From contig JAHRHZ010000133.1 in NCBI GenBank assembly GCA_024137785.1, forward strand, positions 5,397,681-5,461,680: a stretch of DNA of 64,000 bases, in the 5' to 3' direction. Within the stretch, counting starts at the first letter, position 1. Each line of letters starts with the position of its first letter. The notes beneath the pieces were generated by a model. It saw only the letters and a program-made list of their open reading frames with translations, did not search any database and was not told where the DNA came from. Positions 1,518 through 64,000 of the stretch are shown one piece after another. The stretch comes from Ginglymostoma cirratum (lineage: Eukaryota). The translations under genes were made by a program, and so were the position numbers.

Positions 1518-1930
1518 GTGGAAAAGTTACCTTGACAGATCAGCCGAACGCACTGCAACAGATAGAACACAACGTCGCCACCAACATCCCTGCTGCCTGC
1601 AGACACCGTATAAATATCCGCCCCCTGATCTGGGGTGAAGACCACATTAGATTTACCAACGAGTATGACTTCATTCTGGGTTCGGATCTTGTTTATAGCT
1701 CAGCTTCTTACTCTTCACTAATCAGAACATTACATTATCTCGCTCATCCAGATACTACCATCTATCTGGCTTCCGCATTCCGAAAAGGAAATGGCTCCCT
1801 ATCTTTTCATGACGTACTTTTACCCGTGTATTTTAAATGCATGGTTGTTGACAGGTTAGCGGACAAGGATATTACTGTGTACAAAATGACCAAAATTGGG
1901 AGAGGTCCTGAGGACTGGTTCCTGACATAA
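1518..1930 (+). CDS. EEF1AKMT3: EEF1AKMT3/METTL21B-like lysine methyltransferase, copy 1, terminal coding exon (upstream exons lie outside the window)
   Basis: Acceptor tctcttcttcttgtcag|GT at 1517/1518, phase 1. Encodes GKVTLTDQP (post-I), LIWGED, YDFILGSDLVY (motif II with DxxY) and TIYLASAFR; stop TAA ends at 1930. Homologous to the last exons of copies 2-4. Confidence 0.9.
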
Positions 1931-2157
1931 ATGTGGAAACTTTAGCTGACGTTGGAATTCTTGATAAGGGGTTAATTTTCTCTATTTGTTCTATAAATGC
2001 AAAATCCTGAATCTTCAAGGCTTTGTTTTAGGATCGCCTCATTCTATTACGTGGTTCATAATTTTCCCTAAGAAGTTCCGTTTGTCATGATGGTGTATCT
2101 AAATAACTAAATTAATGTAGTGAACCAGCAACTAAGTTGCTTGTTGCGCGCTCTTCC

Positions 2158-2468
2158 TAGTGGTTAGCACAGCTGCCTTGCAGCGCCAGAGGCCCGGGTT
2201 CGTTTCGAGAATCGAACGACTGTCTGTGTGGAGTTTGCTCGTCCTCCCCGTGTCTGCGTGGATTTCCTCTGGGTGCTCGGGTTTCCTCCCACAATCCAAA
2301 GGTGTGCAGATTAGGTGAATTGGTCATGCGTAATTGCCCACAGTGTCCAGGGATGTGCAGGCCAGGTGGGTTAGCCTTGGGAAATGCAGGGTTATCGGGT
2401 TAGGGTAGGATGGTCTTCGGAGGGTCGGTGTGGATTCGATTAACCATTTTCCACACTGCGACGTATGA
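2158..2468 (+). mobile_element. HE1-type tRNA-derived V-SINE
   Basis: A/B-box-like head (tagtggttagcac...gggttcg), V-domain (ctgtgtggagtttgc...tctgcgtgg...gtttcctcccacaatccaaag) and CR1-like tail (tcttcggagggtcggtgtgga). Homologous to 22118-22470 and 45219-45420. Confidence 0.8.
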
Positions 2469-4539
2469 CTTCTTTTTGAAATATTTTTCAAACAATATTT
2501 AGGAACATAACATAAACAGGTAAATACATGTCATGATAAGAGATGTCGGTTTAAAACCTCGAGACGAGTTGACACAACCTGCTGTTTCTCCATGTCAAAA
2601 CCATTGCACGCTGACATTGTCCGACAGTTGAATTTAATAGATACATTCGCAGTGCCTTGCTGGAAACCGTCGACTTAGTGCAGAAGTAATTGGACTGTTT
2701 GTGCACTTTGTATTCACATTTAACTTGGCGAAATTTGTTGTCAAATACCGTTCGCTTGCAATAGTGTAATTGTATATTCGCCGCGCAGAGATCGGTTATA
2801 GCCACCGTAGATGCTCGTCGCAACAATTACGTCAGCCAACTGAAAACTTTGGCCGCAAAGTTGTCAACTAACACAGAACAGATAGCAAAAGAGCCAGTGA
2901 CCTCATTGGTCAATGTTAATTCATTATCGGTCAGCTAATACAAATAGCCTCTAAGTTGCCAATTGCCTAGGCATAGAATGTAAGAGTTTTGACAAGTATG
3001 AGGTTGGAAACAATTCACATCTCTGTCGTATATTCTACTACAAAGTGTGAATGCATAGAACATCTGCATCTGAAGCCGAACGGTTTTAATGTTGAATTGA
3101 ATTTAGGAATGGTGAAGCTGAGCCTGGTCAGTAATGTGTTATTATGACCGTGAAGCAATTATTCTATTTCTGAGTGACAAATGAATGCACAGATGGAATA
3201 AAACAAATATATTGTGTGCAACGGATTCAATTATCTTCTGATGAATGCATATTACTTTCAACGCGCGAAAATGGATAATAAGCCTCGAAGAATTAAAATT
3301 GCAACGTTGCAATTTATTCGCTCATGCACCTGAGATCGCCTGTGACTTTCTGTATCATTCTCGCGCTGTCCTGCGACCTGATGATGCACCGGAAAAACGC
3401 GGGGAAGGTACAAAACCCAGAAGAGTTTATGTGCCAAAAAAAAACCATTCTTGCTCGCTGACGCGAAAAATATCAATATGTCAGAAAATCCTGCAACACG
3501 AAAATCATTCGCACAATCTCGTCTGCGGTCGTTCTTTGTTTAAATTGTCCGCTGTAATCTCAGAACCTAGTTTATGTTGTCCTGCAAATTAGACCTGTTT
3601 ACGTAAGTGCCCATATAACTGTTGAACGTTTACAAAGAACGCTCTTCTTCCAATCTTGAATAACGTGGCTTTAAATGTCTCCGTACTAAGAGAAATTCAT
3701 TTAGAGATACACCATTGCTACACCACTCAGCCCTCAAAAACGCATACATGGCCCTATACACCTATGCGCACAAACCAATGCTGCCTAGAATTTAAACACC
3801 AATCCCTTCAAACTCGAGACACTCATCCCTCTCCGAATGCTAAAATCCAACAAAATCAATCCATCAATACTGCCTTCCACTCTCCGTTTCCCAATTTCGA
3901 TCCACCTACCCAGTGCAACCTTTCCCGGAGACGTCCGTGGCTTCACATTTTCATCACCACGAAGGTATCAGGCAGCGTCTCAGTGACCAATGGCCATATA
4001 CGTCATTTGCTCCTAAGCTGTAGAGCTTCCTCATTCAGTGTAGTGAAATTGAATGACTAGAATTTGAGCTGCTCCTCCAGGCCTTGCTGTCTTATAGGCT
4101 TTATGACCCCGTTTTTTAGAGGATGTATTATGCGTTCACACTGGTAGCCAACTTATCCATTCTTGCTCCAACTATTTTCTAACGATATTTCGAAATTAAC
4201 AGATCTTGCTTTTCTCGGAGCCCTGTCTCTATCTCTAGAATTACTCAGCACCATTCAACGTGGTGTATCTGTTTTAAGTCTTTGTCTGGGTTTGGACATT
4301 GTCTAACCATTATAAGTACTTTTCACACCCTTACACCCTGAATGGAATTCCATCTATAGAATTATTCCATACTCACGCTTTCCAATCGTAAGAGACCACT
4401 CAGCCTTTTATTACACTGCTTTCAGCTGCCTTCGTTGACCCCAAGGGAGCTGACGTCTTTTGTGACCTCCATCTATGACCTGTTTGTCTGGCGTCACTTT
4501 TTTTTATCCGCTTGACCTGAAGACCTCTCACCAATGAGT

Positions 4540-62337: not shown

Positions 62338-62566
62338 AAAACCTAAAGAACTGTGGATGCTGTAAATCAGAAACGAAAACAGAAATTGCTGGAAAAATTC
62401 AGCAGGTCTGGTAGGAAAGAGAAATCGGAGGTAATGTTTTGAGTTTGGTGACCCTCAGAACTGAGTTTTGAGGAAGGGTCACCGGACCCAAAATGTTAAC
62501 TTTGATTTCTCTTCATAGATGCTGCCAGACCTGCTGAGATTTTCCAGCAATTTTTGTTTTTGTTTC
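62338..62566. mobile_element. Fold-back short Penelope-derived element, family B, with TSD
   Basis: About 62370-62460 is inverted relative to about 62465-62566, with the centre at the hammerhead relic. TSD agaaacgtgatgta / agagatgtgatgta at 62324-62337 and 62567-62580. Confidence 0.8.
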
Positions 62567-63653
62567 AGAGATGTGATGTATTCAGTTAGTTTTTATTTGT
62601 TGTAAAATGAGCTGAATTCAGCAATGTTAGACAAAGGAGTAATACAGTGATATTCACTTGCAAGCTGTAGTAAAGATCAAGCTTTGCTACTACAATATGC
62701 ATGAAATAGTTTTATCAATATACATGGCCCTGTCTAATGGTGACAACTTGCATACACTGTGCTGCTGGTGATCAGAGGAAGTCAAGTATTAAGTATGGAT
62801 ATGAAGTAGATCTTTTTAAATTAACTGGCAATTATTAGCTTTCCTTGGTATTTTATTGTTCAGGGAGCAGCCCAACAGTAGCCAAACTGAAATTTACCCC
62901 AGCAGTTATCATGCTATAATTTGAATTGAAAACCTATGTGTTACTAATATATTATTACTACTTTACACTTCATCTTGGATAACAGTCAGATACCATTCCC
63001 CTTACCTGCTAAAAGGCAAACCATATGGTTGATATGCAGTATCAAAAAAGATTTGGGACCTGGCAAGTCAGAATACATGGCAGAAAGGGACAGAATGGAC
63101 TTTCAACCTGAATATTGACTATTTCTGCAGGCTTTTCAAAAGGCAGTGATAGGTGCATGTGAAGGAAGTGGCACTTTAATGAAAAAATTGATGCGTTGAT
63201 TACATTAACAAAAGTAAATTCATGCATCATTTGTATCACTACCAAAAAACGTGACAACTGATACATTTCAGCATTAAGAAAAATTTGGGTTCTAAGAGAA
63301 TTCTCCTGAAAGATTGAGACGAAGAAATTCCATGCTGCGAAGAAATTATACTGGATTGTGCTTATAATTATCTTTGCATGCGTTTGAATATCCTCGTTTC
63401 TTAACGACGATTTAAAATTTGCACATAGTTTTAAGGTGGAAATGACATATTACAACTGTTTTTAGTTACCATATATGCTACAATATAGTAGACATTACGA
63501 AATGAATCAAGAATTGTTACTTAAAATAAATATTTATAAGCAAGAACTAAAAGTCTTGTGGTGAAGCAATAAAGACAGGAGAACTGTTGACAGGAATTCT
63601 TTCAACCGGGAAGTATGTTCAGCACCGACTCGTTTTCAGTCTTTGCCTGCGAA

Positions 63654-64000
63654 TCAATCCTCAGGAATTGTAGCAAGTTTGCTCAGTTTGCACACAACGA
63701 TGCTTTTTGTCTCTAAACTTTCAACGACCTGGCAGTTAAAATACCGAGGCAAGAGTTTCTCATGGAAAAGTGCAGAATCATTACTCCTTCGTATTTCAAT
63801 AGCGAGGTAAATTGTGGCCCCTTGCCTGGCGAGATAGCGTAAAGTTTCTATTAATGCCGGGTAGGAAACTGAGCTATAAACAATGTCCGAACCTAGTACG
63901 AAATCATAGACAGTAGGAAATTTAGTTTGGTCTTCACCCCATGTCAGGGCACGGACTTTCACACGATGTTGGCAGGCAGCAGGAACATTGATGGAGACAT
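63654..64000 (-). CDS. EEF1AKMT3: EEF1AKMT3/METTL21B-like copy 4, terminal coding exon (5'-partial, runs off the window)
   Basis: Minus frame from 63998 reads VSINVPAACQHRVKVRALTWGEDQ...YDFVLGSDIVYSSVSY...TIYLAIEIR...ATIPED*, with no stops before TGA at 63654. Confidence 0.9.
   Translation of the reverse strand, partial: VSINVPAACQHRVKVRALTWGEDQTKFPTVYDFVLGSDIVYSSVSYPALIETLRYLARQGATIYLAIEIRRSNDSALFHEKLLPRYFNCQVVESLETKSIVVCKLSKLATIPED

Follow-up and report, generated by a model that had tools for sequence, protein, structure and literature searches.

The nurse shark Ginglymostoma cirratum carries on contig JAHRHZ010000133.1 (assembly GCA_024137785.1) four genes that resemble METTL21B/EEF1AKMT3, the lysine methyltransferase that in humans acts on Lys165 of eEF1A. 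All four lie within the 64,000 nucleotides analysed here (positions 5,397,681 to 5,461,680, hereafter the window), two of them whole and two cut at the window edges, and they are numbered copies 1 to 4 in order of position. They likely belong to an old gene cluster of cartilaginous fishes that goes back to METTL21B. Judged by sequence, the true EEF1AKMT3 ortholog is not among them; it is a separate, canonical shark gene and likely the true eEF1A-K165 enzyme. The genes of the cluster probably encode active protein-lysine methyltransferases that each dock a target of their own, the canonical gene keeping eEF1A K165. The expansion, of a known type of enzyme, is real, old and conserved, annotated automatically and apparently not described in print; the sequence evidence for changed targets is fair.

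The window copies were found by motif scans and translations. The Pfam domain PF10294 was matched in four of the six proteins scanned, namely exon 3 of copies 1, 3 and 4 (57.5, 60.9 and 49.8 bits against a gathering cut-off of 21; E 1.8e-16 and 4.3e-13 for copies 3 and 4, copy 1 in Table 1) and, for copy 3, exon 2 as well; no match came from exon 1 of that copy or from one unrelated frame. These E-values exclude a chance likeness to methyltransferases for the three copies that the scan covered, and copy 2 is placed in the family via its orthologs, which carry the domain. The four paralogs proposed in an earlier note on this DNA are thereby confirmed, as is its statement that motif I, post-I, LxWG and DxxY are retained wherever visible. 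The full MTF16 motif set (motif I, post-I, motif II and (D/E)xx(Y/F)) is present in copies 2 and 3 and is partial in copies 1 and 4. That note also reported open frames with canonical splice sites, and indeed all four visible introns are of the GT..AG type with phases 0 and 1, although only two of the four copies are seen whole; copies 2 and 3 do share their architecture. Exon-3 identity is 57 % between copies 1 and 2 and 47 % between copies 2 and 3, close to the rough counts of 60 and 50 % made earlier, and 43 % (1/3), 54 % (1/4), 66 % (2/4) and 44 % (3/4) in the remaining pairs. The copies are 96–98 % identical in protein sequence to their orthologs in Stegostoma or Rhincodon but equal neither, which places the source among the carpet sharks. 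Nei-Gojobori ratios of nonsynonymous to synonymous substitution (dN/dS), taken between paralogs within the window, lie at 0.21–0.42 in all six pairs, as expected under purifying selection.

Two trees were built, one with FastTree on 206 rows and one with IQ-TREE on 45 rows (LG+G4, no mixture model). In both, a branch (100/99) has every chondrichthyan sequence to one side, and the split that sets the canonical group, together with the bony sequences, apart from the derived genes, the Callorhinchus ones among them, is supported at 100/98. The canonical shark group is short-branched and comprises Heterodontus, Chiloscyllium, Stegostoma and Rhincodon; its whale shark member is the one that NCBI names without “-like”. 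The gene tree thus points to this separate shark gene as the likely ortholog and to none of the four window copies. The canonical gene sits on other, smaller contigs (12.2 Mb in whale shark and 19.6 Mb in zebra shark; P0112, P0130), whose sizes might match those of the X chromosomes of the two species; one sex-chromosome supplement gave no match. The window copies themselves are nearer to METTL21B than to METTL21A, C or D by sequence, tree and fold.

The groups to which the copies belong are old, as the earlier note supposed: they extend across shark orders, and two of them, those of copies 2 and 4, include rays. The copy-1 group includes Heptranchias and Pristiophorus, and the copy-3 group covers four galeomorph orders inside a 41-row clade with rays. 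Because groups are shared with rays, several of the duplications are older than the divergence of sharks and rays, and the derived lineage is likely older than that of the chimaeras; these divergences date back roughly 300 and 400 million years, respectively. The position of the root is less firm. A METTL21A outgroup puts it inside the bony vertebrates, a doubtful placement. In the approximately unbiased test, bony monophyly has a p-AU of 0.137, and a tree in which the derived family is sister to the bony plus canonical sequences, 18.5 log-likelihood units worse, is not rejected (p-AU 0.059). The derived family could accordingly be an older duplicate that was lost in bony vertebrates instead of a chondrichthyan duplication.

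A profile search returned 333 proteins; those listed, 120 in number, come from 21 species, every one of them chondrichthyan. Among these 120, the entries on one contig number 15 in Heptranchias, 11 in Heterodontus, nine in Mustelus, eight in Scyliorhinus torazame and seven in Cetorhinus, and Stegostoma has eight after adding cluster members, contigs being equated by their length, which does not prove adjacency. In Chiloscyllium, Hemiscyllium and Stegostoma a further paralog is followed by the orthologs of copies 1 and 2 side by side (consecutive accessions). The chimaera Callorhinchus has at least three members on one 24-Mb contig, and for this reason the family is chondrichthyan and not, as had been thought, only elasmobranch. 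A few derived genes sit on other contigs. Since the contigs of relatives hold larger sets, more copies are expected beyond the window edges: the proposed extension of the cluster past both edges is seen in this DNA as copies 1 and 4 being cut, further copies being known from relatives, where the minimum of four found here rises to 8–15 on one contig. Nor is the cluster a pure head-to-tail tandem array, for copies 3 and 4 stand tail-to-tail. Lineage-specific duplicates occur in Heptranchias, Rhinoraja and Mustelus. Near-identical, recent derived duplicates were also noted outside the main cluster contig in the P0150 and P0154 clusters: Rhinoraja has five entries on a contig of 10.9 Mb, and those of Mustelus lie on two scaffolds. 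Such recent copies indicate that duplication is ongoing.

Comparable clusters find no support in bony vertebrates within the matches listed. The bony-type profile gave 353 matches, and the 120 listed comprise 119 bony-type proteins and one from a shark; counted by hand, the former are 116 named proteins from 115 species (medaka twice) and three unnamed ones. When the best 150 representatives at 50 % clustering were taken, 45 passed a METTL21B-like filter, and these, minus one insect artefact (P0148), divide into 29 nearest to chondrichthyan and 15 nearest to canonical bony sequences. No diverged bony METTL21B paralog appeared among the matches listed (120 of 353, 120 of 333 and the best 150 representatives), a negative limited by several diverged representatives without a taxon name (P0182, P0194, P0241) and by the 90 % clustering, which hides recent duplicates such as the two genes of sturgeons.

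Evidence for changed target recognition comes from the pattern of what is kept and what is lost. Residues are numbered here after the gibbon protein P0398, which is near-identical to human METTL21B (4QPN) save for a 7-residue insert. Of 81 columns that are at least 90 % conserved in the 119 bony-type proteins, the canonical shark gene keeps 75, whereas the ten derived groups keep 54–64 and the three Callorhinchus proteins 58; METTL21A, with 60, is as far from METTL21B at these signature columns as the derived groups are. Counting only the columns that each covers, the window copies lose 17/48, 22/78, 20/78 and 17/40, compared with 6/81 for the canonical gene. Orthologs of the window copies are 44–53 % identical to four bony METTL21B proteins. 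The catalytic centre is spared: W57, L89, G90, G92, D111, W140, D158 and Y161 are kept at 100 % and T110 at 91–100 % in all ten derived groups, so that the residues that bind S-adenosylmethionine (SAM) and those of the lysine cage are intact. The losses fall in the N-terminal arm, where the derived groups are without the canonical FP..D..LF segment, in the loop before W57, at the residue after DxxY, in the SKMRxEHxT segment and in the last hairpin. Changes that are fixed within single groups lie in the loop before the cage tryptophan, after DxxY and after strand 5. In particular, the SKMRxEH segment, which is conserved from teleosts to mammals and in the canonical shark gene, has been rewritten differently in each derived group, K-to-E/D charge reversals included.

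Several of these positions can be compared with METTL21D, whose contacts to p97 are given as R18, D44, E174, Y210 and D214, with a cage of V38, W43, Y147 and Y148 (PMC9942839, PMC10339199). V38, D44, Y148 and E174 map to V52, D58, L162 and K188, and R18, Y210 and D214 lie outside the alignment. When 188 columns were ranked by fixed differences among nine groups, K188 came first, with L162 and V52 also in the top eight; that three of the four mapped positions should rank so high has a chance probability near 2e-4 (calculated by hand). The K188 column holds K, A, E, N or D between groups at 99 % conservation within them, and among the window copies it reads A (copy 1), E (copies 2 and 4) or N (copy 3). 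Over five broad segments, the N-terminal one excluded, within-group identity is 0.77 and between-group identity 0.39, compared with 0.80 and 0.61 elsewhere. Finally, a predicted model of the copy-3 ortholog of Stegostoma (P0129; mean predicted local distance difference test score, pLDDT, 92.4) would have the seven-strand MTF16 fold and matches human METTL21B (4QPN) best, with a template modelling (TM) score of 0.92 and a root mean square deviation of 1.3 Å. Intact catalytic residues combined with contact positions fixed by group make new substrates likely.

A plausible course of events is that the separate canonical gene retained the eEF1A-K165 job, that duplication freed the cluster copies to remodel their docking surface, and that each group afterwards froze on its own target. 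Since METTL21 enzymes are known to methylate nucleotide-binding chaperones or proteins involved in translation (PMC5416902, PMC10238732), the targets of the cluster enzymes may be expected, by analogy with METTL21A-D, to be folded chaperones or proteins of the translation system, each methylated at one lysine.

A number of observations weigh against separate targets. The enrichment of changes in the broad segments is strong (p 1e-4 to 1e-6), but the segments were drawn after the alignment had been viewed; in windows fixed by the four METTL21D contacts, again without the N-terminus, p<0.05 is reached in 0/8 groups at ±2, in 1/8 at ±3 and in 4/8 at ±5 residues, and the stronger values must be downgraded because this stricter test is mostly not significant. 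METTL21A, which has another substrate, displays no enrichment in the segments (p 0.17–1), and they are therefore not a validated specificity code. At D58, the equivalent of the strongest METTL21D contact D44, copy 2 and the copy-1 and copy-4 groups still have an acidic residue; it is lost only in the copy-3 group and one other (g8), and the column ranks outside the top 25. The pairing of E174 with K188 uses an ungapped offset from DxxY, at a place where the HMMER alignment opens a 3-residue gap. Moreover, no structure of a METTL21B-eEF1A complex turned up in the sequence and fold comparisons made, and synonymous divergence is near saturation in the three of the six paralog pairs that involve copy 3 (proportion of synonymous differences 0.65–0.71).

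If the copies still act on eEF1A, they could divide the labour by tissue, stage, eEF1A paralog, lysine or degree of methylation. That all of them are nearest to METTL21B would fit, as would the variation of the Lys165 region between eEF1A paralogs (PMC5416902) and the fact that several dedicated enzymes already target eEF1A (PMC10238732); changes beside DxxY and at the V38 equivalent could also shift the methylation degree without changing the target. We nevertheless regard such a division as rather unlikely, since the canonical ortholog persists alongside the cluster, the SKMRxEH segment is rewritten group by group with charge reversals, and at least ten groups would face the two eEF1A paralogs given for vertebrates, which is not a shark count (PMC5416902). 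Copies that merely drift under relaxed constraint in a process of birth and death, with little distinct function, would account for the variable copy number, the lineage-specific duplicates, paralog dN/dS values of up to 0.42 and the low RNA counts of two skate copies. In little skate, genes labelled Eef1akmt3-4 and -6 appear in a table comparing anterior and posterior pectoral fin with baseMean values of 13.7 and 10.3, and one of the two has an extra DUF1891 match (PMC10115646). Contigs of X5, X6 and X1 compared with window positions 1000–18500 cover mostly repeats and gave no joint at exon borders, and argue neither for nor against expression. Redundancy of this kind is quite improbable given that the same orthologous groups have been kept in different shark orders and in rays, that the changed positions are fixed within groups and that the window holds no pseudogene; between Stegostoma or Chiloscyllium and Heterodontus, orthologs are 68–83 % identical in the ten derived groups, near the 84 % of the canonical gene.

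It is very unlikely that the derived enzymes methylate something other than lysine (histidine, an N-terminus or a small amine) or serve as non-catalytic binders. The Pfam family does include the histidine methyltransferase METTL18, and the loss of the N-terminal FP..D..LF segment would be compatible with such a shift, but the W, D and Y of the METTL21A-D lysine cage are invariant in all ten groups and the predicted fold resembles METTL21B best. A more ambitious version of the separate-target reading would have a chondrichthyan lysine-methylation system of at least ten enzymes, each on a different chaperone or translation protein, tied to the high internal urea of these fishes through stabilisation of the targets or shielding of lysines from carbamylation. 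We hold this to be unlikely, the link to urea being drawn from general physiology; it would lead one to expect decay of the cluster in freshwater stingrays, which gave up urea retention.

Distinct targets for the cluster enzymes would have precedents within the family. METTL21A-E, which include the lysine methyltransferases of HSPA, AARS1 and VCP/p97, are likewise duplicates with one core and different substrates, and single residues away from the active site are reported to discriminate between targets (PMC9942839). They differ in that five members are known (PMC8662637) as against at least ten shark groups, for the most part on one chromosome, that arose within the METTL21B branch, and in that no derived shark group has a known substrate. 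Human METTL21B/EEF1AKMT3 (4QPN) itself is the best match in sequence and fold and shares the MTF16 fold, motif I, post-I, LxWG and DxxY, yet about one protein per bony species (among the matches listed) stands against 8–15 per contig in several sharks, and the window copies are without the SKMRxEHxT, DxxY-L and N-terminal signatures that the separate shark gene has. The FAM86/eEF2-KMT genes of primates are another case of an MTF16 lysine methyltransferase that multiplied in one lineage (PMC10238732); however, the majority of the 16 FAM86 sequences are pseudogenes within a segmental duplication of primates, whereas the shark copies are intact and of old date, with orthologs in different orders. 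The seven-strand lysine methyltransferases of humans number 16, and almost every one has a single substrate (PMC10238732). Should the shark groups prove to have targets of their own, at least ten such enzymes would have arisen from a single gene in one vertebrate lineage, which would provide a natural series for how METTL21 enzymes choose targets, with a few ranked positions open to test, and would imply methylation sites beyond the reach of the mammalian catalogue.

In RefSeq, the orthologs of the window genes are shark and ray models called “EEF1A lysine methyltransferase 3-like”, as the earlier note anticipated; these are automated labels that give one name and no distinct function, and they hide the true ortholog among many derived genes. 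We found no paper describing a chondrichthyan EEF1AKMT3/METTL21B expansion, judging by title and the start of the abstract in a search that most subscription journals lie outside. The excerpted text of a study on METTL evolution (PMC8662637) has no mention of shark, Callorhinchus or Chondrichthyes, and the main text of the whale shark genome paper never uses the word “methyltransferase” (PMC8455134). The supplement of that paper lists an EEF1AKMT3 orthogroup, OG0001578, with 92 proteins in 28 taxa, and the expansion is therefore latent in public tables. Nothing was found in the supplements of PMC12318234 and PMC13188829.

The coordinates of the genes are collected in Table 1. The earlier exons of copy 1 lie outside the window, and copy 4 continues past its right edge with no splice site inside. 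Neither a fifth copy nor a pseudogene was detected in the window, the 30 kb between copies 2 and 3 included, by tblastn with 141 relatives; an Rfam scan gave no matches, and no flanking gene usable for synteny was found in the window.

Table 1. Positions of the METTL21B-like coding exons in the window
Gene	Exon	Position	Strand	Remarks
Copy 1	last coding exon (post-I, LxWG, DxxY, stop)	1518..1930	+	AG acceptor; PF10294 E 1.8e-15; 133/136 identical to Rhincodon XP_020372074
Copy 2	coding exon 1 (holds lysine-cage Trp)	9830..10000	+	phase-0 GT donor
Copy 2	exon 2, 112 nt (motif I)	10988..11099	+	phase-1 donor
Copy 2	exon 3 with stop	17119..17522	+	full model 228 aa; 223/228 identical to Stegostoma XP_048394353
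Copy 3	coding exon 1	47153..47278	+	phase-0 GT donor
Copy 3	exon 2, 112 nt (motif I)	49390..49501	+	PF10294 E 5.9e-08
Copy 3	exon 3 with stop	52612..52997	+	full model 207 aa; 200/207 identical to Stegostoma XP_048394125
Copy 4	3' part of last coding exon, 114 codons	63654..64000	-	110/114 identical to Rhincodon XP_020372072

Upstream of copy 2 there is a TATA-like box at 9734, and the DNA around its start is CpG-rich (9430–9830). Copy 3 is preceded by a pyrimidine tract ending in AG (about 47010–47035, some 120 nt upstream of the ATG), which suggests an upstream non-coding exon. A gap of 100 N at 170–269, with the same repeat segment on both flanks, is likely an assembly join just upstream of copy 1. 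Retroelement-like frames occur at 41394–42086 (- strand), 5823–6713 and 36312–36972; the first, to which Pfam gave no match, looks like a GIY-YIG/Penelope-type remnant. Short repeats are dispersed in large numbers.

Some further observations concern METTL21 genes and their relatives elsewhere. METTL21B, stated to be absent in birds (PMC5416902), is annotated in kiwi, rhea, emu, tinamou and Rhinopomastus (P0317, P0321, P0322, P0423, P0173). The coelacanth protein P0418, named METTL21A by NCBI, groups with METTL21B, and the Prionailurus protein P0416, also named METTL21A, turned up in the METTL21B list. The insect sequence P0148, a leafhopper FAM86A model, contains 27 repeats of one motif-I segment and likely reflects a tandemly repeated exon or an assembly artefact. 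In teleosts, METTL21C-like models have two to six methyltransferase domains per polypeptide, joined by acidic linkers (P0142, P0143, P0144, P0155, P0157, P0164, P0289, P0294), for example six domains within 1923 aa in Serrasalmus, four in Coilia and three in Pangasianodon, with Sphaeramia “mettl21ca” as another case. Whether real or fused models, these could represent a second, independent METTL21 multiplication in the form of domain repeats.

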